64,000 bases of DNA. Origin: an uncultured bacterium (GTDB lineage Bacteria; Patescibacteriota; Patescibacteriia; UBA1558; GWA2-36-10). A program made the position numbers and the translations under genes. Under the pieces are notes generated by a model. It was not told the DNA's origin and did not search any database. It was given only the letters and a program-made list of their open reading frames with translations. Position 1 is the stretch's first letter; the number at the start of each line of letters is the position of its first letter. Below are positions 39,897-51,159 of this stretch, in pieces. The stretch is taken from positions 2,740 through 66,739 of the forward strand of contig CAINYB010000001.1 in the NCBI GenBank assembly GCA_903855135.1, written 5' to 3'.

Positions 39897-40314
39897 TTTT
39901 TATTTGTTTTAAAATTTTATTTTGCATTTGTTCTTGCTTATTATATTCTACCTCACTCTTTTCATGATCAAAACCCAACAAATGCAGGATGCCATGGGTA
40001 GTTAATAATTTTAACTCGGCACTTAAAGACTTTTTATTAGCCTCTGCTTGGCGTTTGGCTACTGGTAAACAAATCACCACTTCACCTAAAATAGCAGTGG
40101 AATCAAGATTAAAAGACAAGACATCAGTTACTTTATTTTTATGACGATAAACTCTATTTAAATTTTTTATTTCTAATTCCGAAACCAGAGCTAAAGAAAT
40201 AGCTTGTTTTAATTTAAATTTTTTAGCAATAATAGCTTCTAATTTTTTGAGCCAAGAAAAATTAGCTTTTTGTCCTCGCTTATTTAAATAGATAGCGAAA
40301 TTATTATTTGACAT
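39889..40314 (-). CDS. ybeY: rRNA maturation endoribonuclease YbeY
   Basis: HGxLHLxGxDH motif. Confidence 0.9.
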   Translation of the reverse strand: MSNNNFAIYLNKRGQKANFSWLKKLEAIIAKKFKLKQAISLALVSELEIKNLNRVYRHKNKVTDVLSFNLDSTAILGEVVICLPVAKRQAEANKKSLSAELKLLTTHGILHLLGFDHEKSEVEYNKQEQMQNKILKQIKND

Positions 40315-41366
40315 TATTTTAACAAACTAAAACTATTTAGCATCATTAAATAAGTATTAGCAAAATATGGCTTTGATTCTGTTTCTATGTGATAAGTAAA
40401 TTTAATAAAATAATTATTTACTTTAGCAAATACCGTATAAGCATCAGCTATTTTGCTTTGTAGAGCACTAATCTTTGCTTCTTTACCTAAAGTCAAAGAC
40501 GAAAGAGTAGCACCGTCAGCCTTACTTTGAGCCCAGGCTTGCAAAGTTTGATTTGCTACCACCGCTTCAGCACTAATGCTCATAAAATCACCAGTACCAG
40601 AATCAGGAGTAAACATAATCTCTAAATCATTACCCTCTATTGCTTGGCTGAGCCAATTTTTTGGCTTTAATAAAAGATACTTGACAGTTTGATTACTAAA
40701 TTGAGTAATCAAACTAGAATGCACTAAGGCTTGATTTGATAAAAGTGGATTATATAAATTCATCACTTCCACGCCATCTTTATAACCATCGTTATCAGTA
40801 TCTTCATCGTTATTATTAGTGCCAAAAATTAACTCTTCCTCAACGCTTAAATCATCACTGTCTTGATCAAAATTATTACTTGTCGGTGGTGGTGGCGGCG
40901 GTGGTGGAGTCACTTGTCCATTATTAGCTGGCTCATTGTTATTGCCTTGATTAACTGGCGTGGTGCTAGTGGTGGTTGTGGCCACAACTTCTGGAACTGA
41001 TTGCTCCTCTTCTTTTGGCGGCTCTACAATATTTTGATTATTAGCTTGATTTTGTGTATTATTTTGATCAGTTTTTGCTTGATTATTAGAAACTGATAAA
41101 TTCGCAAATAAAAGCATTGAGCCTACTACAATCAATAAAAAAACCACAAAAGCGATGCTACCCAAAATAATCTTTTGTTTATTGCTTAATTGTTTTTTTG
41201 GAGAAGTCGGTAAAAATTTTTGTGGCATAACATGAATAGCGTCTTGACTAATTACTATTTCTTTTTCTTTACCTATTTCTTGATTAACAATCGTATTAAT
41301 CTCGTTCGACATTTTTTGATTGTCGATTTGAGTTTGATCTTGAAAATTGTCTTGTTCGTTAGGCAT
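40314..41366 (-). CDS. single-pass membrane protein: N-in, N/Q/T-rich linker, poly-Pro, thrombospondin-type-3-like DxDxDG calcium-binding repeat, plus a ~150 aa C-terminal domain
   Basis: PPPPPPPP is encoded by the (GGT/GGC)n tract at 40885-40909. DEDTDNDGYKDGVEVMNLYNPL is homologous to the C-terminus of the next gene. Confidence 0.55.
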   Translation of the reverse strand: MPNEQDNFQDQTQIDNQKMSNEINTIVNQEIGKEKEIVISQDAIHVMPQKFLPTSPKKQLSNKQKIILGSIAFVVFLLIVVGSMLLFANLSVSNNQAKTDQNNTQNQANNQNIVEPPKEEEQSVPEVVATTTTSTTPVNQGNNNEPANNGQVTPPPPPPPPTSNNFDQDSDDLSVEEELIFGTNNNDEDTDNDGYKDGVEVMNLYNPLLSNQALVHSSLITQFSNQTVKYLLLKPKNWLSQAIEGNDLEIMFTPDSGTGDFMSISAEAVVANQTLQAWAQSKADGATLSSLTLGKEAKISALQSKIADAYTVFAKVNNYFIKFTYHIETESKPYFANTYLMMLNSFSLLK

Positions 41367-41374
41367 ATTTTATT

Positions 41375-42106
41375 TTATTTTGCTAATAAACCATCCCCAT
41401 TGGGATTATATCCATTTTGTACCTCTACCCCATCCAAATAAGTATCATTATCCGTATCTGGATCCAAAGCATTTGTCTGGTGAGTAAAAATCTCCACTTT
41501 ATCATATAAACCGTCATTATCCGTATCTGGATTTACTGGTGATGTTCTATGAATTCTCACTTCATCTTTATCTGATAAACCATCGTCGTCGGTATCTGCT
41601 AGTCTTGGATCAGAACCAAGTCCAGTTTCCTCTGCATTACTCAAACCATCAGAATCATCATCTAAAATCACTTCTGGCTGATTTTGAGTATTATTATTTG
41701 TAGGATTATTTTCAGCTGGCTGATTTTGAGTATTATTATTTGTAGGATTGTCAGTATTTTCAGTACTTTTTTTCGAGACAAAAAAAGAATATGCGCCCCA
41801 GATAACTAGAGTAAGTAATATCAAACCAGATAAAGCAACGAAAACTTTCTTCATAATCGCACTCTGACTATGCTCATCTTCCATCAAAATGGGATTGGGT
41901 ATATTAGGATTTGTAGGCATCGGCGGTAAATTCATAGGACTTGGTTTTACTTGCAATTTAGCAGCTGAAATAGCACTTGGTTTTTCTACAGCACCAAACA
42001 TATCATCTACCGCCGACACTGGTGCTGGCGATGGACTCGCAGTCGTAGGTTGCGAAGAAAAATCTTGACTAGGCGTAGCATCGCCTTTTTTTACATCATC
42101 AAACAT
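41375..42106 (-). CDS. single-pass membrane protein with three TSP3-like calcium-binding repeats, ending ...YNPNGDG; paralog of the upstream gene
   Basis: DSDGLSNAEE...DTDDDGLSDKDE...DTDNDGLYDKVE...DTDNDTYLDGVE, and a 42-bp tandem duplication at 41676-41759. Confidence 0.6.
   Translation of the reverse strand: MFDDVKKGDATPSQDFSSQPTTASPSPAPVSAVDDMFGAVEKPSAISAAKLQVKPSPMNLPPMPTNPNIPNPILMEDEHSQSAIMKKVFVALSGLILLTLVIWGAYSFFVSKKSTENTDNPTNNNTQNQPAENNPTNNNTQNQPEVILDDDSDGLSNAEETGLGSDPRLADTDDDGLSDKDEVRIHRTSPVNPDTDNDGLYDKVEIFTHQTNALDPDTDNDTYLDGVEVQNGYNPNGDGLLAK
41676..41759 (-). repeat. 2 x 42-bp tandem repeat (ggctgattttgagtattattatttgtaggatt...) encoding NPTNNNTQNQP(A/E)x2
   Basis: Seen directly in the sequence. 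Confidence 0.8.
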
Positions 42107-42118
42107 AGCTCAAATAAT

Positions 42119-45100
42119 TTAATTTTGATTATTATTGTTGTTCATTGGCTGCTGCCAGAGACAAAGTAAAGGAAGGGTGTGATCGCACCGTGGCCATGTA
42201 TTTTCATTCATAGATAAAAATGATCCTCCACTCCAAGTTATGTCAGGATTAGAATTAGGATTAGGACTAATCTTACTGGTCTCACCTAAACGACCCCGGT
42301 TCACACAATCATTTATATATCTAATGTTTTCAAAACTATTCGTATAATCATGACAAAAATTCTCCTCAGAATCCATGTTGCAAATTTCACCACTCATAGC
42401 AATACCAGGATAATAAATGCTTCCATCATATTTGGTACCACTCCAAAAAATGCAACCTTGCGCTGTGCAATCATTTATTGGATTATTCATGGCAGTTTGC
42501 TCACCATTTTCAAGTCTATTAATCGCATTATCTAATGTCGTATCTGTTAAATCCGTCCAATCATCGGCTATCACAGTGCCATTAGTCATCTTATACTCTA
42601 AAGAATTATGTGCTAATCTACTGCCAGCCGAAGTATCAAAGTCAGATAGCCAAGCTTTCCAAATACCTTCTCTAGCTAGGCTATTCTGTGAATCTGCATG
42701 CCATTGACATAAATAATCAGCTGCTGCCAAACCATCAGAGCCACTATAGCCCTTATTTGTTGCTGCGCCCAACAAATTACCATTATATGCAGTGGAAGTC
42801 AGAAATATTGTGGCCCCATCTGACTCGGCTATTTCAGAACAATTACTTTGATTAAAATTACAAGACGCATTACAACTTAAACTACCTTGATCCCAACCAA
42901 AATCTTGGCAAGTTTGGTTGTTTAAATTTGAACCATCGCATTGCTCTGGAGGGTTAATCACCCCATTACCACAGTTGGGTGGTGGTGGTGGCAGTGACTC
43001 TTCATCAGAACAATCGCTAAGATCGAAATTACATTGATTACAACTTAAATTACCATAATCATAATCAAAAGCAGTGCAATCTTTACCCGCTAAGTTAGTA
43101 GTATCACATTCCTCACTGGGATTTATCACTCCATCACCACAACTAGCTGGGCTGGCCACACTGCCATCGCTGCAAACTGGCGTACAAGTATTACAAGTGG
43201 CTGTCTGACCATCCAAACACGAGTACTCCTCTACAACCGTGTTGTTTCCCTCACATGTTTCATAAGGGTCATCTAAAATATGATCACCGCAATAGCCACC
43301 ACACATAGCCTCGGTCAAAATCGGCCATGGCTCATACCAAGTACATTCTATGGAGTTACCATCTGCATCCAAAGAGCCGGCTGGGTAACAGCCACCTAAA
43401 TGCTCATTCCACCAATCCTGGTTATTATCAGGCTCTGGAGTTGTATCACATAAATTTTGGAAACCACCATCGCACTCTTCTGCACCATCAACAACGCCAT
43501 TACCACAACCCAAACTACCCTGTGGTAAACCATTAAAAGAAGCGTTGCATTGTGGATTATTTAAATGAATATGTTCATCTAAGTCTGGAATAGTATAATT
43601 ATTAGGATAGACAAATTCAAAGTTAGCATCTAAAGAATAATTATAACCACCCTCATTTTTATAAAAATAAATACTCGAATTTAAAGGACAGGTGAATCTA
43701 TTGATTTCATCATTCCAACAAGTTTCTTCATCAAAACCATCTGGGCAAGCACTAAAGCGATTCAATGGGTCTACTGGCAATGACATACCTAAAACGTTAG
43801 AAAATTCTTGTTGCCAAGATGGCCAAGGGCTAACTGCTATGTGAGGTACATAAGTACCGGCATTCAATAATGGATAATAAGGCACACAATCACCCCCACT
43901 TGGACACTGACTATCTTGCGTGCAACTAATATTAGCATTATTATTACAGAATTTATAATTATTACTATAGGCTTTTAATTTATTTTGAATACTTAATAAA
44001 TCACCTAAGCGCTGATTATCGCGACGTAATTTATCACCATCAGCGTCACAATTTCCTTGATTTGGGCAATCAAATTTACTAGAACAACTAATACTAGCAT
44101 CGCTACTACAAACTCCCATATTAGAAACATTTGTACTCAAATGTAAATTAGACAACATTTGACTGACAATATCGGCTGTGGACTCTCTTGCTCCAATGCT
44201 ATAAGAAATCATGTAAATATTACTATATACACTACCACCATTTACATCCACCACATTCAAGGCGTTAATATAGATAGTATTACCAACTTTAAGTGCTGGG
44301 TAGCCATCTATCACTTGCGCTTGGCCTGCTATTTCTGGATTTGGTGCATATTTTGTATACCAGTCACTCAAGGCTAAATGTTCTTCATTTTTCATCACTC
44401 GAACGCCTATTACATCCAAAGAAGAAGCTTTAGCAGTGACCGCAATTTCATTAGTCGCCGCTGATTCTCCACCCATGTTATAAGCTGTCACACGATAGCT
44501 ATAGACTTCGTTATTTATAACATTGTTATCCGTAAAATTAATTGGATTTTGATTACCGCTATCAACAGTTGCTATTTTATACCAATCAACTGTGCTCGAT
44601 TTACGATAAATATTAAAACCATCTTCGTTAGTAGCATTATCTGTCCAAGCTAATTTTACGCCATCAGCACTATTATCAGCTAAAAGTAAACTAGTAGGCG
44701 CACTTGGGATAGCAATTGCAGCTAAAACAGTATTTTTAACTTTAGCAAATAAATTTTGCCACCAATAATTTTTTGTATTTTCCTCACTTTTTGCAATAAC
44801 TGTTTGTTTAGGATCAACGATAAAAATAAATTCTCTTAAAGTTTGACCATTAGGTGGCAAAATATTTGGGGAACCTAAATATGGTAATAAGGGCTCATTC
44901 ACTCGACCAGAATCTTGACAATAATAGGTACTAAAATTATACAAATCATTAAAATCATAAGGAAAATTACTAGCTTGTCTTGGCCACGGATGTTCGCATA
45001 AAAACAAATCTACTTGTGCACTACCCAGTGCGCTACCAGCTAGCTCATCGCTAACTTCAACTATTAAGTTAGTTTGACCATTTTTATTTAGCGCTGTAGC

Positions 45101-48100
45101 TAAAATAGTTTGCTGGTTATCACTTTCTAAGTCTAAAAAGTCATTGTTTTCCTGCCAAGCATAATCAGTCATCACCAATGGTGATCCACTAGGATCATAA
45201 GCTATCGCTGTATAACTATGTTGATTGCCACTCAAAGCATCAGCCACATCACCCAGACAATTACTTCTACTACAACTAAATAAATCTGGATTAGGAGCAA
45301 CAGTGACAAAACTCACGCGACACATTTGATTATTTGTCTCAAAAAGCCAAATGTAAGCGTCCATACTACCATTATCATCGCTATCAAAATTTAATTGTTC
45401 AGTAACCAAATTAACACCCATATTACTTTTTACTCTTCCAGAGACTAAAGATAAATACTCAGTACTAGCTTGTAATGGTGAAACTGGATATAAAAACGCT
45501 TTGCTTTTGTCACTATTATTAGTAAAGACAAAATTTGTTTCCACCGGGCAATACCACTGGAAATCTTTCTTGACACAATAACCAGGTAATTCTTCACTGG
45601 CAGATTTTTTATATAAACGCATACCTGCTTCTAGGCTAGCACGATCCATCAAAGTATTAAATTGCACTTCTATGGCTGAATTTAAACAAGCTGGAGTTTG
45701 CGGTTTTGGGGTTGGGACTATTTTTGGAGCTGTATAAACTAAAGTATCTCCAAAATCTACTTCTAATATTGCCTGATCTTCTAATGTATAACTAGACAAA
45801 GAGGCATTAACACGCGTCATACCTTCTGCTTGTGGCCTAATGTCAGCACGATAAATATTTGATGGTATTAAATCAGCTATCCCAGCAGGATTCAAACTCC
45901 AATTATATGGGCTATACGACATTGGGTTTAAAATTTGACCATGAGGGTCACAGGCGTTAGCTGTGCTATATGGAAAAGCTGAATAATTAATCATCGAATC
46001 ATCAGTGGCTAAATAATAGCTTGGGTCAATCTCCAAAGACGTAGGCGTACAAGCCCCATCTTTATTGGTTTGAAAACTCCAGCTAAAAGGTGCGCTGATT
46101 TTATAACCAGCAATATTTTTTAACTCTTGTTTTAACTCTACTTTATAATATGTTTCAGGAATAAAATCACTATGCAAAATAGCGACTCTACGACCATCTA
46201 CCGAAACATCAAAACTAGTAACTAAATTAGCACCAGTAAGTAAAGCACAAGTTGAATCTGTACATTTTTTTATAACAATATTATCATACAAATTACTTTC
46301 TGAAATAGCTGTATTAAAATCTACCCAAACTAAAGCATTTGTACAGGAGCTATTACAATTTGGACCATAATCAACAACTTCTAAGACAGCATCTTTTATC
46401 TTTGGATAAGCATAAGACATAAGGCCGTTTAATTGAGCTTTGACTGTAACTGTAGCTGGTGTACTATTTTCTGTCACCTGTGTGCCCTCAACTTTTACTT
46501 TAGCAATATTAGTATTCTGGGTTCTGAACCAGCCAATATTTGCCTTATCGGCGTTTGAGCCCTCTAAAGACCAAGCCGACCAATTATAATTACTACCACA
46601 AATATTACAATTTCCCCCAATTGGGCTAGCACTAAACTCTCTTTCATGACCAACATAAATATCTGCACTCGGACTATCAGTCGGAGTCACTGCTATGCTG
46701 ACGACTTGGCAAAGATTTTCTTGTGCTCTAAAATGCCAATCATAAGTAGCACCAGACCAAGTCTCACTACCACTAGCTTTATTAAACTCTCCTAAAGCTA
46801 CTTTATACCAACGATTAGGTGTTAAATTTATTCCGGGATTTAAAACAAAACCTTCTTGATTACTATTATGATTAATAATCGTGAGATTAACTGCTATATT
46901 TTCCACACAATCCGCCGAATTAAAAGCACCGCCAGTATTACAAGCAAATAATTTCAAATTACTAGTAGTATTAAAATCTGCATCTTCAACATCAGCGTTA
47001 AACATACCCGTGATATTTGTATCTAAATAAGCGTCGGTTGCGCCTGGCCAAGGAGAAGGTGAAGAAAGATTATGAACAGCTGGATCACAAGCAAGCTCTT
47101 GCAAAGAAAATGGATCAGCAGCAGTGGTGATTGTCCAAGAATAGCTACAAGACAAATCTGCTGGGCAATGACCAAGTGGCGCGCAATAGTTACCAGTTGC
47201 TTCTTGACAACATTCATTACCAGACACACATTGAGTGTTATTAGTGCAAGTTGCCACTGAAAAATTCAAGCCATTGCTGTCTTGAGCACCAACTCTAACT
47301 TTAGTAGGACCAGTCACCGCTCCATTAGGTACCCTGACATTAATCAATTGATCACTCCAAGAATTAATCTCGCTTGAGACTCCACTACTAAAATATACAT
47401 GATCGCTAACATTACCAAAATTATCACCATATAAAGTGACATCAAAAACACCATTGGCTGGACCATTATTTGGGTCCATAAAACACAAGCCTGGACCAGG
47501 AGCACCAATGCTCATATTAAAATTATAGGCATTACTTTGCTCTGAGTCTGAACTACGTATAACTTTGATTTGATAAGGGCCCGATGCCAAATTAGGAGCT
47601 TTGACAACGATGCTATCATTGCGCCAATAATTAGCTAAACATTGAGCTGGAAAATCAAAATCACCCAAGTCAAAAGTACCATCTGGTTTAATGAACCTTA
47701 CGCTACCAGCAATATTACCAAAATTACTACCTATAATAGTTAAATATTGCCCAGCTGGTGCATTATCTGGGTTTATTGAATTGATAATCGGTGCGCCGCC
47801 ACCGGCTACCTCAACACTAAATGGTAGCTCATTACTACTTTTATCAGCAGTATTCTTGAACCAAACACTAAGCTCACCAGCAGATAAATTCGGAACTACT
47901 AAATTAGCTTTTTGAGGATTATCATAAGAAAATGTTCCATTTACTCCGCCAAAAAAGGCACTATCTGTATTATTAAAATTAAAACCATGAGCAACAACTG
48001 CTTCACCAAAACTACCAGAAGTTGGCTCTAATTTACACAAACTAGGTGCTTCTTCGCCAGAATCATTAAAAATCTTAGAATTACTCTCTCTTTCATCTAC

Positions 48101-49492
48101 ATGTCGCACAAAAATGTTAGCACTGGTATCACGAACTTCAGCTGGAACTACTATAACGATTAAATTATCACTCCAATAGTCTGTACAAGCCGAATTTACG
48201 TCATGTGGATCTATACCAAACTTCTCATTACCATCTGCACCTTCAAAAACTACTCGACCGCCACTAGAGCCAAATCCCGAACCATAAACACTAACAATAG
48301 AGCCCTCTTTAGATATTTCTGGACTTATTCTAGTGATTACTGGCCCATCACTTTCAGTGGCTGCACTAAGACAAAAATTTTCATCCACACAAGCATTAGC
48401 CGCACAACAGCCAGACGCACAGTCATTTGGGCCATTGTCACACAAAACATTAAAATCTTCCGGTGCTGATTGTATCTCATTCACTTCCACAAACAGATCC
48501 CCAGACAAAGCATTCATAGGCACAATGGCATTGGTAATTTTAGTATCTGTCCACGTACCAATACTACCAAAACGATTCGATTGCCAAACGTTACCGTCCC
48601 AATTAAAAATATCAACAAAACCAGAATCACCAAAGCCAATACCCTCTATCATGATACCTTCACCACGACGTTGAGTATTTGGCGTCACGCAAGCAATGCC
48701 TGGACCAGGCTCGCCCTCTCTGACTTCAAAAGTAGCTAAATCTGGGTAAGAGCCTTCTTTATTACTAGCAGTATTAATTTTTATCCGATAATTGCCCAAA
48801 GCCACGTTAGGTACAATGGCTTTAATGCGAAAATAGTTATTTGGGCGATTATTAAGACGATTCCAAGCAGCTTGACCATTGCAGTTAATCAGACTAGCTT
48901 CTTGAATCACACCACTACCATCAAATTTTACTTTACTATTTACCGCATTATAAGTTTCAAAATTCCAACCTTCAATAGTAATATATTGACCAATAGTAGC
49001 ACTATTAGCATTTGGTTTAACTTTACAAATTCTAACTGAACCATCATCTGGTGCTGGACAATCTGGAGGAACTACAATCGGATTAATAATAGTACCACCA
49101 TTGTTATTATTACTATTGGGATTAGTGGCCTCATATAATTTATTCAAAACAAAACTAGCGATCGCATAAGCAGATAAAATAATCACCAAGCCGATCACCG
49201 CACTAACAATAATACCTTTAGCAGTTTTTATTTTTTCTTCATCACCACGAGAAGTCATCCATAAATAACCAGCATATAGAATCAAGACAACAGCCAAGAC
49301 TCCCAAAAAACCTAAAAATATATTAATAATATTAGCAATCACCTGCTTTAGGTCTGACTGAGCCAGATTGACTCCAGCGTTTGTCAGATCATTTACTCCA
49401 GTCACATCATTACTTTGGGCTAAAACTAAATTGGCTTTAAGGAGAATTAAAGTCAGAAATGAAAGTAGAGACCAAAAAATTTTTTTATTCAT
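42119..49492 (-). CDS. giant (2457 aa) cell-surface protein: signal peptide + VirB2/TrbC-pilin-like two-helix anchor, ~6 IPT/TIG-like beta-sandwich domains, Cys-rich linkers, FN3 domain, 4 Myxococcus-type cysteine-rich repeats (CGNGxxDxxEECD), C-terminal DUF1554/lectin-like domain
   Basis: One uninterrupted 7.4-kb ORF. Domain motifs: GFG/GSGFG IPT signatures, LAWTDNATNEDGFNIYRK (FN3), CGNGVVDGAEECDGG, and ATIFLTSTAYNGNLLG...ADYLC. Confidence 0.8.
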   Translation of the reverse strand: MNKKIFWSLLSFLTLILLKANLVLAQSNDVTGVNDLTNAGVNLAQSDLKQVIANIINIFLGFLGVLAVVLILYAGYLWMTSRGDEEKIKTAKGIIVSAVIGLVIILSAYAIASFVLNKLYEATNPNSNNNNGGTIINPIVVPPDCPAPDDGSVRICKVKPNANSATIGQYITIEGWNFETYNAVNSKVKFDGSGVIQEASLINCNGQAAWNRLNNRPNNYFRIKAIVPNVALGNYRIKINTASNKEGSYPDLATFEVREGEPGPGIACVTPNTQRRGEGIMIEGIGFGDSGFVDIFNWDGNVWQSNRFGSIGTWTDTKITNAIVPMNALSGDLFVEVNEIQSAPEDFNVLCDNGPNDCASGCCAANACVDENFCLSAATESDGPVITRISPEISKEGSIVSVYGSGFGSSGGRVVFEGADGNEKFGIDPHDVNSACTDYWSDNLIVIVVPAEVRDTSANIFVRHVDERESNSKIFNDSGEEAPSLCKLEPTSGSFGEAVVAHGFNFNNTDSAFFGGVNGTFSYDNPQKANLVVPNLSAGELSVWFKNTADKSSNELPFSVEVAGGGAPIINSINPDNAPAGQYLTIIGSNFGNIAGSVRFIKPDGTFDLGDFDFPAQCLANYWRNDSIVVKAPNLASGPYQIKVIRSSDSEQSNAYNFNMSIGAPGPGLCFMDPNNGPANGVFDVTLYGDNFGNVSDHVYFSSGVSSEINSWSDQLINVRVPNGAVTGPTKVRVGAQDSNGLNFSVATCTNNTQCVSGNECCQEATGNYCAPLGHCPADLSCSYSWTITTAADPFSLQELACDPAVHNLSSPSPWPGATDAYLDTNITGMFNADVEDADFNTTSNLKLFACNTGGAFNSADCVENIAVNLTIINHNSNQEGFVLNPGINLTPNRWYKVALGEFNKASGSETWSGATYDWHFRAQENLCQVVSIAVTPTDSPSADIYVGHEREFSASPIGGNCNICGSNYNWSAWSLEGSNADKANIGWFRTQNTNIAKVKVEGTQVTENSTPATVTVKAQLNGLMSYAYPKIKDAVLEVVDYGPNCNSSCTNALVWVDFNTAISESNLYDNIVIKKCTDSTCALLTGANLVTSFDVSVDGRRVAILHSDFIPETYYKVELKQELKNIAGYKISAPFSWSFQTNKDGACTPTSLEIDPSYYLATDDSMINYSAFPYSTANACDPHGQILNPMSYSPYNWSLNPAGIADLIPSNIYRADIRPQAEGMTRVNASLSSYTLEDQAILEVDFGDTLVYTAPKIVPTPKPQTPACLNSAIEVQFNTLMDRASLEAGMRLYKKSASEELPGYCVKKDFQWYCPVETNFVFTNNSDKSKAFLYPVSPLQASTEYLSLVSGRVKSNMGVNLVTEQLNFDSDDNGSMDAYIWLFETNNQMCRVSFVTVAPNPDLFSCSRSNCLGDVADALSGNQHSYTAIAYDPSGSPLVMTDYAWQENNDFLDLESDNQQTILATALNKNGQTNLIVEVSDELAGSALGSAQVDLFLCEHPWPRQASNFPYDFNDLYNFSTYYCQDSGRVNEPLLPYLGSPNILPPNGQTLREFIFIVDPKQTVIAKSEENTKNYWWQNLFAKVKNTVLAAIAIPSAPTSLLLADNSADGVKLAWTDNATNEDGFNIYRKSSTVDWYKIATVDSGNQNPINFTDNNVINNEVYSYRVTAYNMGGESAATNEIAVTAKASSLDVIGVRVMKNEEHLALSDWYTKYAPNPEIAGQAQVIDGYPALKVGNTIYINALNVVDVNGGSVYSNIYMISYSIGARESTADIVSQMLSNLHLSTNVSNMGVCSSDASISCSSKFDCPNQGNCDADGDKLRRDNQRLGDLLSIQNKLKAYSNNYKFCNNNANISCTQDSQCPSGGDCVPYYPLLNAGTYVPHIAVSPWPSWQQEFSNVLGMSLPVDPLNRFSACPDGFDEETCWNDEINRFTCPLNSSIYFYKNEGGYNYSLDANFEFVYPNNYTIPDLDEHIHLNNPQCNASFNGLPQGSLGCGNGVVDGAEECDGGFQNLCDTTPEPDNNQDWWNEHLGGCYPAGSLDADGNSIECTWYEPWPILTEAMCGGYCGDHILDDPYETCEGNNTVVEEYSCLDGQTATCNTCTPVCSDGSVASPASCGDGVINPSEECDTTNLAGKDCTAFDYDYGNLSCNQCNFDLSDCSDEESLPPPPPNCGNGVINPPEQCDGSNLNNQTCQDFGWDQGSLSCNASCNFNQSNCSEIAESDGATIFLTSTAYNGNLLGAATNKGYSGSDGLAAADYLCQWHADSQNSLAREGIWKAWLSDFDTSAGSRLAHNSLEYKMTNGTVIADDWTDLTDTTLDNAINRLENGEQTAMNNPINDCTAQGCIFWSGTKYDGSIYYPGIAMSGEICNMDSEENFCHDYTNSFENIRYINDCVNRGRLGETSKISPNPNSNPDITWSGGSFLSMNENTWPRCDHTLPLLCLWQQPMNNNNNQN

Positions 49493-49584
49493 GATAATAT
49501 AGCTAAAATTTTATTTTAATTTGTTTACTCCCCGTCTAATGCCTGCCTGTCGGTAGGCAGAGCAGTCAAACGGCACACGCTGCA

Positions 49585-51159
49585 TTAATCGCTCTCACAC
49601 CTCGAACCAAGAACGCAATCTGGCGAAGGATCCCCTTCACAAACACAAGATCGGCCAGTAGGATCTTGACAAACACAAGGTTGAAAACAATTTTGATAAA
49701 CATCTTTGATATCTGAAGTCAAAGTTGGCTTATAAGATGTGTAGGATTTTAAACGATCATGAGATATTTTGATTTGACGTCCACTAGCCACACTTAGCCA
49801 ATAATTTATTGGATTATTCGGTGATTCCACAAAAGTAATATTATCACTATTGATAGAGGCAGTCATAAGACTTTTATCAAAAATGATGTTAATTGGTGAG
49901 TTTGTAGGAACGGCATTGTTATCTTCCATGGAACTAATTTTTGGTGGCACCAAATCAATCGTATTATTAGTATTAAATGCCCAGACATAATCAGCGGCTA
50001 GCGAATTATCTGCCATATCTTTGATATTAGTCGTGACAGTAGAAGCTAAACTAGCTGAGGCTGGTAGACAATATACATTACCTCCGCAAGAATTAGTACC
50101 ACAAAGATCATCAGTCACAAATTCTACGGTTCTGTATTGATTTGCTATCCGATAAGTACCAGCTAAAATAGTAGCTGCCTGTTTAACATTGATATTAGTA
50201 AAGGCTGGTGCTAGGCCACTAGCTAAAAGTGGATTTATACTTTCAGAAAAATTCACCTGCACAATAGTATTACGAGGATTAATAGTGTCAGCCACTGGTA
50301 TCACTGAAACTACAGTTGGTGGTGTCAAGTCTATCTCTTCACTGACAGTAAAATTCCAATCATAGCCATTTAAACCAAAGGCTGATTCGCCACTATCTTT
50401 CCTAATCTCATTGGACAAAGAAAAATTGTAACTAGTATTTTGGTTAGCTGCTCCTAAATAAGACCCTGGATCACTACCAAATGGATTTAAAGCCAAAACT
50501 TTATGGTCTTCACTTAAAATAGCTTGTAAGGAATTATTATCAAAAATTTGATCAGTAGTATTATTTTTTAATATAAGATTATTTGCCTTGGCACAGGTGC
50601 CATAAGAACAATCAAATAATAAATCTTCGGACTTAATGGCTTCTTTGAAAGTAATATAAATATTAGTATTACGCGGAATATCTTCAGCATTACGCATCGG
50701 ATAATGACTTTCAATCACACCATTACCAATACCAATACCTCCATGATAACCACCGCCACCATCAGCTCCACCGCCACCACCAAAAGTACCATCAAATAAA
50801 GCTTTTAAAATAAAACTAGCGATCGCATAAGCAGCGAGCGTAATAGCTAAGCCAATAGCGGTATCTACCATAATTTTTTTAGCCTTTTCTAGCTTAGCTG
50901 CTTCACCATTGGCCGTCATCCATAACCAACCAGCATAGAGAAATAATAAGACCGCCAAAGTCCCTAAAAATCCCAAAATAATATTAATAATATTGGCGAT
51001 CACTTGTTTTAAATCTGTTTGCCCCAAATTTACTCCAGCGTTAGCCAGGTCGTTAACCCCTGTAACATCGTTACTTTGTGCTAACAAGTCTTTTGGTAAC
51101 AAAAAAATAACTGCTAATAAAACAATTAGAAAAACAGTTATTCTCTTTAATTTAAGCAT
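49585..51159 (-). CDS. surface protein (524 aa) with the same signal peptide + VirB2/TrbC-pilin-like anchor, Gly-rich linker, bacterial Ig-like (SbsA-type) domains and a Cys-rich C-terminus
   Basis: Its N-terminal 125 aa are ~70% identical to the giant protein N-terminus. DLTPPTVVSV is an Ig-like domain start. Confidence 0.75.
   Translation of the reverse strand: MLKLKRITVFLIVLLAVIFLLPKDLLAQSNDVTGVNDLANAGVNLGQTDLKQVIANIINIILGFLGTLAVLLFLYAGWLWMTANGEAAKLEKAKKIMVDTAIGLAITLAAYAIASFILKALFDGTFGGGGGADGGGGYHGGIGIGNGVIESHYPMRNAEDIPRNTNIYITFKEAIKSEDLLFDCSYGTCAKANNLILKNNTTDQIFDNNSLQAILSEDHKVLALNPFGSDPGSYLGAANQNTSYNFSLSNEIRKDSGESAFGLNGYDWNFTVSEEIDLTPPTVVSVIPVADTINPRNTIVQVNFSESINPLLASGLAPAFTNINVKQAATILAGTYRIANQYRTVEFVTDDLCGTNSCGGNVYCLPASASLASTVTTNIKDMADNSLAADYVWAFNTNNTIDLVPPKISSMEDNNAVPTNSPINIIFDKSLMTASINSDNITFVESPNNPINYWLSVASGRQIKISHDRLKSYTSYKPTLTSDIKDVYQNCFQPCVCQDPTGRSCVCEGDPSPDCVLGSRCESD

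Follow-up and report, generated by a model that had tools for sequence, protein, structure and literature searches.

A stretch of 64,000 nucleotides of contig CAINYB010000001.1, from an uncultured bacterium of the Patescibacteria (the whole stretch is referred to as the window), carries a giant gene of 7.4 kb on its reverse strand. Its product is probably a fibrillar adhesin on the surface of a Parcubacteria-group cell (Patescibacteria/candidate phyla radiation, CPR), in which an endostatin-like domain would be displayed distally. In the mechanism that we propose, the precursor would be exported by the Sec pathway and its signal peptide removed, and a VirB2/TrbC-like two-helix hairpin would fix the protein to the cytoplasmic membrane while the remainder extends outward. 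About 2340 acidic, disulfide-rich residues would form a stalk composed of six TIG units, three Big_5 domains with interleaved segments, a fibronectin type III (FN3) domain, a conserved module, and four Cys-knot repeats. The stalk would present the C-terminal endostatin/DUF1554-like domain (hereafter, the tip) at its far end, where the tip may bind a ligand on a host cell or substrate and, being a replaceable cassette, would probably set binding specificity. The hairpin would act as an anchor and may also enter a filament of the type IV secretion system (T4SS) type.

The gene forms a single uninterrupted open reading frame (ORF) of 2457 codons starting with ATG at positions 42119–49492 (−), exactly where the original prediction, which was made from the DNA letters, had placed an uninterrupted ORF of about 11% of the window (11.5% by our count). 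Its product of 2457 amino acids (aa) has a mass of 266.6 kDa, an isoelectric point (pI) of about 4.3, and 85 Cys residues, every one of which lies past residue 144; the pI of the ectodomain is 4.3. The G+C content of the gene (36–39%) is unremarkable beside the window mean of about 35%, and an open frame of 7.4 kb in such A+T-rich DNA cannot have arisen by chance.

The integrity of the gene was examined by comparison with other assemblies. An identical 2457-aa protein (P0272) was present on 12 public contigs from different assemblies, the longest of which is 135.8 kb, and five orthologues with 68–72% identity were colinear with it from residue 1 to about residue 2163–2222, beyond which the C-termini diverged. 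The longest internal direct repeats in the gene were 42–43 nt at 71–77% identity, and no notable tandem repeats were found; repeat-driven mis-assembly is therefore unlikely. Based on the identical contigs, the colinear orthologues, and the lack of long repeats, we rejected a chimeric mis-assembly, which is very unlikely. A chimeric ORF was the case that the original prediction had named against itself; it is countered by these data, with premature stops in two sister assemblies (described below) as a caveat.

Endostatin-like tip and its replacement at a syntenic locus

The C-terminal domain begins with ATIFLTSTAYNGNLLG, as quoted in the original prediction, which had called it DUF1554-like. 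A word-indexed search with the tip returned one relative, the collagen-repeat protein P0001, whose C-terminus passes the DUF1554 threshold (29.8 vs. 27.5 bits) and is 41% identical to the tip over 110 aa. This search missed P0008, which was recovered by an exhaustive HMMER search yielding 3404 relatives at E ≤ 1e-3 and 375 at E ≤ 1e-10. DUF1554 and/or Endostatin were matched by seven of the ten sampled whole proteins and by 36–39 of the 45 aligned segments of these relatives. The end-to-end alignment of the tip (A1) contained 12 invariant columns, all of which were kept in the window copy, including C2262, C2380, C2436, and C2444, and the tip ends with the family signature ...C....LLC.WQQ. Its length of about 225 aa exceeds the usual 165–180 aa, and the excess consists of insertions with four extra Cys residues.

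Comparison of the A1 profile with PDB sequences retrieved mouse and human endostatin with E-values from 2e-12 (1koe) to 3e-10, the matches spanning the whole domain with the four Cys residues aligned. Structural prediction of the tip by AlphaFold2 gave a mean predicted local distance difference test (pLDDT) score of 81.3 and a predicted template modeling (pTM) score of 0.85, and Foldseek matched this model to endostatin structures, including 1bnl, 1dy1, and 1koe (E-values of 1e-6 to 9e-5 overall and 1e-6 to 7e-6 for these three; template modeling [TM] scores normalized to the target of 0.71–0.75). No match to Lectin_C (PF00059) was found in the giant protein, and C-type lectins appeared in the Foldseek comparison only at E > 3 with TM ≤ 0.4. 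Of the folds proposed for the C-terminus, the model thus retained endostatin and not the C-type lectin. As judged from sequence profiles and the predicted fold, the tip is an endostatin-type domain and not a carbohydrate-recognition C-type lectin. The DUF1554-like assignment was borne out by the 3404 relatives, the profile match at 2e-12, the predicted fold, and the adhesin function of the leptospiral endostatin-like (Len) proteins discussed below. The suggestion of carbohydrate or host-surface binding held in part: carbohydrate binding gained no support, given the missing Lectin_C match, the C-type lectin fold matches at E > 3 only, and the acidity of the tip, which differs in this from heparin-binding endostatin, and a role as an adhesin is favored as the probable one.

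To place the protein in a family, we used a search with the whole sequence, which returned 160 relatives at E ≤ 1e-5. The best 120 of these ranged from 1400 to 4200 aa and, where named, came from Patescibacteria (Parcubacteria group, Komeili-, Uhr-, Magasanik-, and Falkowbacteria). Their source names were generic (Ig-like domain-containing, IPT/TIG domain-containing, pilin, LamG-like, and cysteine-rich repeat protein). The distal positions of other relatives were occupied by VWA domains, two C-type lectin domains, LamG, and other or unassigned domains. Among the best 120 of the 160 relatives, the tip type of the window was found only in P0008, the tip of which was 41% identical to that of the window, with an overall identity of 48%. 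P0003, P0004, P0005, and P0006 shared another tip, unlike that of the window.

The gene order at the locus (YqeY, a 524-aa paralogue, the giant gene, two membrane proteins with thrombospondin type 3 [TSP3] repeats, YbeY, DAGK, FtsA, and FtsZ) recurred around P0003 and P0008, which share 72% and 48% identity, respectively, with the giant protein. Comparison of the window with the P0003 locus (L002) by blastn showed homology from position 49522 to 43022 at 75% identity, which resumed at position 42107, just past the stop codon, at 79%. The intervening 914 nt of the window, containing the last Cys repeat and the endostatin-like domain, corresponded to 352 nt in L002 encoding an unrelated domain of about 100 aa. 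The tip is an exchangeable cassette on a conserved stalk, and because orthologues carry a different distal domain at the same locus, the tip probably sets binding specificity.

Endostatin/DUF1554-like domains were also observed in tandem in P0122, P0123, P0127, and P0128, the highest number being seven, in P0122. This protein (N-terminus MPKRGQAAMEYFIITAVL) and P0128 (...GYTFFELITVIG) begin with sequences that resemble archaeal or type IV prepilin signals. Judging from these sequences, the domain seems to have been mounted on different pilin-type anchors more than once.

N-terminal hairpin, stalk domains, and conserved module

Coordinates of all features are collected in Table 1. A Kyte-Doolittle scan of the whole giant protein limited the hydrophobic segments to aa 5–27, 48–81, and 87–120. 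The first of these belongs to the signal peptide, for which a cleavage site is predicted from the sequence, and the other two form the hydrophobic helices of a hairpin separated by the charged loop TSRGDEEKIKTAKG. Pfam T4SS_pilin (PF18895) matched aa 46–115 (38.7 bits; cut-off, 26.6; E = 1e-9), in agreement with the pilin-like anchor that had been proposed originally. The N-terminus scored just under the cut-off for TrbC (PF04956; 26.7 vs. 27.9 bits) and near the threshold for the NCBIfam Mbov_0395 pilin-like conjugal transfer family (36.3 bits vs. a cut-off of 40). This VirB2-like N-terminus was common to 119 of the best 120 of the 160 relatives. A phmmer comparison of the N-terminus with PDB sequences gave only compositionally biased matches to designer repeats, with no significant aligned stretch. 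Pilin subunits are small (about 100 aa), whereas the giant protein has 2457 aa. Both ends of the hairpin face outward in VirB2-type pilins, so that the remaining 2340 residues would be extracellular; the beta-sandwich domains, disulfide-rich repeats, and acidity of these residues fit such a placement.

The stalk begins with six IPT/TIG-like beta-sandwich units, in line with the at least six units read originally. Pfam TIG (PF01833) matched five stretches of the whole protein (E = 3e-26), and units 1, 3, 4, 5, and 6, when scored singly, reached 26.6–41.8 bits against a cut-off of 20.9; unit 2 (aa 263–352) had no Pfam TIG match when scored alone. The Cys-rich linkers described between the TIG units could be read at two positions. 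The middle stalk contains three predicted Big_5 Ig-like domains (about aa 809–922, 1051–1142, and 1269–1365), each followed by a segment of about 110 aa, and these domains had been overlooked by the original prediction. Pfam Big_5 (PF13205) matched three stretches of the whole protein with 59.2 bits against a cut-off of 23.6 (E = 7.5e-16), and the individual segments scored 23.0, 39.4, and 23.9 bits. The three interleaved segments had no family match, and self-BLAST of aa 783–1500 detected no significant internal repeat, so that kinship among these segments was not demonstrable.

The FN3 domain scored below the Pfam fn3 (PF00041) cut-off of 25 bits, with 21.5 bits on the segment (E = 2.7e-4) and 17.5 bits within the whole protein, but the best phmmer matches of the segment among PDB sequences were nearly all FN3 domains, namely those of titin, contactin, Dscam, neogenin, and FN3con; the titin match had an E-value of 6.7e-8 summed over several domains. 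Four Cys-rich acidic repeats precede the tip (24 Cys; pI 4.05) and were only 71–77% alike over 42 nt at the DNA level. For TIGR02232 (myxo_disulf_rpt; cut-off, 20.8 bits), they scored 26.0 bits when aa 1993–2225 were taken alone and only 16.7 bits within the whole protein; Pfam DUF4215 (PF13948) gave 22.6 bits, below its cut-off of 27. The FN3 domain and the four Myxococcus-type repeats had both been part of the original prediction, and altogether the analyses supported all five of its domain calls, including the least secure one, the DUF1554-like C-terminus, which Pfam misses in this copy.

Between the FN3 domain and the Cys repeats lies a module of about 270 aa, the most widely shared part of the family, which occurred in 97 of the best 120 of the 160 relatives and formed the C-terminal end in some of them. 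No Pfam or NCBIfam match was found for aa 1693–1960, and the module profile matched no PDB sequence. Structural prediction by AlphaFold2 with a 34-sequence alignment (pLDDT, 86.1; pTM, 0.81) showed an alpha/beta fold with a 28-residue helix, for which Foldseek found nothing in the PDB below an E-value of 0.2 (best, 0.21). In a profile search, the module was likewise detected as stand-alone proteins of 300–430 aa with an ordinary Sec signal (P0285–P0316). Few of these are named, most of those being from Patescibacteria, and they have no Pfam annotation. Among GTDB species genomes, Parcubacteria group bacterium GW2011_GWA2_36_10 carried the most similar copy of the module (83% identity), and a Nomurabacteria metagenome-assembled genome ranked next. 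The module represents a widespread, confidently folding, and predicted extracellular unit that is absent from the domain libraries searched here.

One stand-alone module protein is labeled Candidatus Raymondbacteria, a lineage placed outside the CPR. Locus L009 (CAZXZY010000008.1), labeled as an uncultured Gammaproteobacteria bacterium, contains a copy of the module that is 57% identical to that of the window; it is probably a misbinned Patescibacteria contig. The motif arrangement RD..R...YP...DP.N...Y.Y also prompted a comparison with pseudopilins. For aa 1820–1960, one homologue without the Cys insert matched the GspG-type pseudopilin family (PF08334) at an E-value of 0.068 with 13.7 bits against 21. 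This candidate was rejected: no PDB sequence matched, no pilin was among the listed Foldseek matches, and the stand-alone homologues of the module carry Sec rather than prepilin signals.

Table 1. Predicted features of the giant protein, adjacent genes, and sequence variants, with positions in the window
Feature	Residues or codon	Window position	Strand	Evidence or remark
Signal peptide (MNKKIFWSLLSFLTLILLKANLVLAQ)	aa 1–26	49415..49492	−	Hydrophobic aa 5–27 (Kyte-Doolittle scan) and direct reading
VirB2/TrbC-like T4SS_pilin hairpin	aa 46–117	49142..49357	−	Pfam PF18895 match
Six IPT/TIG-like beta-sandwich units	aa 150–750	47243..49045	−	Pfam TIG
First Cys-rich linker (6 Cys)	aa 351–374	48371–48442	−	Direct reading, Cys positions
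Second Cys-rich linker (7 Cys)	aa 749–782	47147..47248	−	Direct reading, Cys positions
Middle stalk, three Big_5 Ig-like domains	aa 783–1500	44993..47146	−	Pfam Big_5
FN3 domain	aa 1597–1684	44441..44704	−	Pfam fn3 (sub-threshold) and PDB sequence matches
Alpha/beta module (motifs RD..R, WPSW, DP.N; two Cys-knot insertions)	aa 1693–1960	43613..44416	−	
Four Cys-rich acidic repeats, CG[ND]G..x..E.CD	aa 1996–2218	42839..43507	−	TIGR02232
C-terminal endostatin/DUF1554-like tip (about 225 aa)	aa 2225–2449	42146..42820	−	Homologues, profile, predicted fold
Replaceable 3' cassette, with stop codon and intergenic bases	about aa 2158–2457	42108..43021	−	blastn against L002
Upstream paralogue (524 aa)		49585..51159	−	Three Big_5 domains, Cys-rich C-terminal end
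Two downstream genes (243 and 350 aa), single-pass membrane proteins with TSP3 repeats		40314..42106	−	Pfam TSP3_bac
Cys codon TGT to TGA in sister assembly L003	codon 2211	42860..42862	−	Sole difference in 14,358 nt
Variant cluster of about 60 nt in L004, TAT to TAG	codon 1873	43843..43903	−	Sister-assembly comparison

Genomic context, variants, and alternative explanations

The 524-aa paralogue upstream of the giant gene has a near-identical signal peptide and a VirB2-like hairpin that is 69% identical over 101 aa, and it occupies the same place in orthologous loci. The two downstream genes matched Pfam TSP3_bac (bacterial thrombospondin type 3, Ca-binding) with E-values of 5.4e-9 and 8.7e-4, and their products contain long low-complexity linkers rich in N, Q, and P. 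They lie tight against the giant gene and YbeY, with gaps of 8–12 nt and one overlap, and this synteny is kept in L001–L004. A scan of the locus for promoters and terminators gave counts equal to chance, so an operon structure would be read from the 8–12 nt gaps only. The rest of the window encodes housekeeping proteins (SecY, EF-Tu, EF-G, PurA, ComEC, RF, HisRS, signal peptidase, FtsA, FtsZ, and YbeY).

Two further observations concern other parts of the window. An adenosylcobalamin (AdoCbl, B12) riboswitch at 36272–36402 (−; Rfam, 53.8 bits vs. a cut-off of 50) immediately precedes a 129-aa ORF (35820–36209, −) and a 590-aa protein (33919–35691, −) with a prenyltransferase-type alpha/alpha toroid and DUF4430. 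The architecture of the 590-aa protein resembles that of transcobalamin-like B12 binders, which would point to capture of B12 under riboswitch control in a reduced genome. A 489-aa ORF beside ComEC (29782–31251, −) had no Pfam family at E ≤ 1e-4.

Two sister assemblies from the same population, L003 and L004, differed from the window only inside the giant gene, and nearly all changes were to A on the coding strand. In L003, the stop precedes the tip by 14 codons and leaves two ORFs, of 2210 and 218 aa, in place of one; Cys2211, which it replaces, is conserved in homologues. In L004, a single stretch of about 60 nt contained every one of the seven mismatches seen over 11,619 nt; five were C>A, and T>A and T>G occurred once each. 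The L004 changes look like a local error cluster, and the L003 change could be either an error or a real allele. A diversity-generating retroelement was considered as the cause of the variant cluster and was rejected: no template repeat and no second copy of the cluster, the cassette junction, or the tip were found in the 64-kb window, and the changes destroy a Cys codon and create a stop. Selenocysteine at the L003 TGA was also rejected. This TGA is the only change in 14 kb, which makes a selenocysteine insertion sequence implausible, and it falls in a disulfide repeat predicted to be extracellular; the selenocysteine machinery was not searched for.

Several data weigh against an endostatin-bearing adhesin. 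Residues 2215–2457 had no Pfam match even at E ≤ 10 when searched as an isolated domain (DUF1554, PF07588; Endostatin, PF06482), and the tip insertions were modeled with low confidence (pLDDT, 56–77 in parts). The tip is acidic (pI 4.33; 12 K+R vs. 28 D+E), and direct reading of its N-terminal segment found no His. In endostatin, N-terminal His residues form a zinc site and a basic patch binds heparin, so the known ligands of endostatin cannot be carried over to the tip. About 600 residues of the protein (three 110-aa segments and the 270-aa module) have no assigned role. Moreover, the gene was intact on 12 but interrupted on three of 15 contigs, and full-length expression is thus not guaranteed in every cell.

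The interrupted contigs are also what a decaying or mis-assembled gene would predict, with the long ORF as a consensus artefact and the real population interrupted at codon 2211 by one single-nucleotide polymorphism (SNP) and at codon 1873 by a cluster of seven. Nevertheless, the intact sequence recurs on contigs of different assemblies, orthologues are intact and colinear, long repeats are lacking, the stop at codon 2211 replaces a conserved Cys, and the L004 changes (five of seven C>A in 60 nt) resemble a local error cluster; decay or mis-assembly is accordingly very improbable. The very high Cys and acidic content would equally suit a structural component of the envelope, in which a surface layer or a bridge between cells would be built or reinforced by the Ig-like and Cys-knot array, with the tip serving self-association or wall anchoring. 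The Ca-binding TSP3 membrane proteins in conserved synteny and the position of the locus among cell-division genes such as FtsA and FtsZ are consistent with such a spacer. However, close orthologues carry unrelated binding-type domains (VWA and C-type lectin) in place of the distal domain, a pattern typical of specificity determinants rather than of structural elements, and the characterized DUF1554 proteins are adhesins, so we regard a structural role as improbable, though less so than decay.

An adhesin displayed on a pilus is somewhat more plausible than a spacer but still unlikely. Here, the VirB2-like domain would be a working pilin that co-polymerizes with small pilins or the 524-aa paralogue into a T4SS-type filament. 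The above-threshold T4SS_pilin match and the 69% identity between the two anchors point in this direction, as does the resemblance of the gene pair to the "VirB2 arrays" reported in Patescibacteria; according to the same study, one cultured Patescibacterium cannot grow as an epibiont without its T4SS and pilin-array genes (PMC12102498). Conversely, a scan of about 20 neighboring or larger ORFs of the window found no VirB4, VirB6, or other T4SS gene, the neighbors being housekeeping genes; the helical packing of a pilus would hardly accommodate 2340 additional aa on each subunit, and the pilins of the literature are small. Compared with these explanations, we favor a membrane-anchored fibrillar adhesin with a distal endostatin-like domain. 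A far-reaching extension of this proposal, which we regard as speculative and on the whole unlikely, is a modular system of host recognition specific to Patescibacteria. A co-opted VirB2-type pilin domain would carry giant stalks, possibly on a T4SS-derived filament, and distal cassettes (endostatin-like, VWA, C-type lectin, and others) recombining at a fixed locus would set the host range; the stop alleles would be real switch-off or shortening variants, and the 270-aa module a new essential extracellular family.

Significance and comparison with known systems

Patescibacteria constitute a large share of bacterial diversity, and their host recognition is largely unexplained; to our knowledge, all cultivated members live attached to host cells. 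The locus provides concrete candidates for host recognition, namely a VirB2-like-anchored stalk, predicted to lie at the surface, and a distal domain that has relatives among proven adhesins. Swapping of the distal domain between close relatives is the pattern expected of a host-specificity determinant. The new elements are the endostatin-like tip, verified by profile and predicted fold and rare within the family (only P0008 among the best 120 of the 160 relatives), the cassette replacement demonstrated at a syntenic locus, the unannotated conserved 270-aa module, and the pilin-type anchor, which is unusual for a fibrillar adhesin. The family itself is well represented in databases, where it goes by generic names, and CPR bacteria were already known to have large Cys-rich surface proteins; our finding is thus a refinement. 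A text search pairing "fibrillar adhesins" with "Patescibacteria" returned no paper.

Large exported Cys-rich proteins that vary among strains have been proposed to function in attachment in Peribacteria/CPR (PMC4736985). Like the giant protein, they are large and exported and show weak similarity to Cys-rich repeat proteins of Myxococcus. They belong to a different CPR lineage, however, and were described without domain-level dissection, a pilin-type anchor, or an endostatin-like tip. VirB2-like pilins are widespread in Patescibacteria and form arrays in some cases, and the passages describing them contain no giant fusions (PMC12102498). The N-terminal Pfam families PF18895 and PF04956 are shared with these pilins, and two adjacent paralogous genes are present here. 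According to the same passages, the pilins are small and many lie beside virB4, whereas the corresponding domain of the giant protein is fused to 2340 residues predicted to be extracellular.

The predicted fold of the tip is the same as that of metazoan endostatin, the C-terminal domain of collagen XVIII/XV NC1 (1koe, 1bnl, and 1dy2), with the four Cys residues aligned. Unlike endostatin, the tip lacks N-terminal His residues, is acidic (pI 4.3), and contains extra insertions that would bear disulfides. Len proteins are small lipoproteins found in a diderm spirochaete, and their ligands laminin, fibronectin, and factor H are of mammalian origin. As the characterized DUF1554 proteins, they serve Leptospira as surface-exposed adhesins that bind these three ligands (PMC2387172, PMC2063517). 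The tip is assigned to the same domain superfamily as the Len proteins (PF07588), and its homologues match both PF07588 and PF06482. In contrast to the Len proteins, the tip is divergent, has insertions that extend it to about 225 aa, is missed by Pfam, and ends a 266-kDa stalk in a Patescibacterium.

Giant adhesins of the SiiE type depend on type I secretion or sortase-type wall anchoring and consist of near-identical repeats. As described in the passages concerning them, SiiE, the ice-binding adhesin of Marinomonas, and the 7651-aa adhesin of Mobiluncus are the largest proteins of their proteomes, and they share with the giant protein the logic of a long Ig-like array that projects a distal binding domain. 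Unlike these adhesins, the giant protein combines a Sec signal and a VirB2-like hairpin with highly diverged mixed domains, 85 Cys residues, and a swappable tip.

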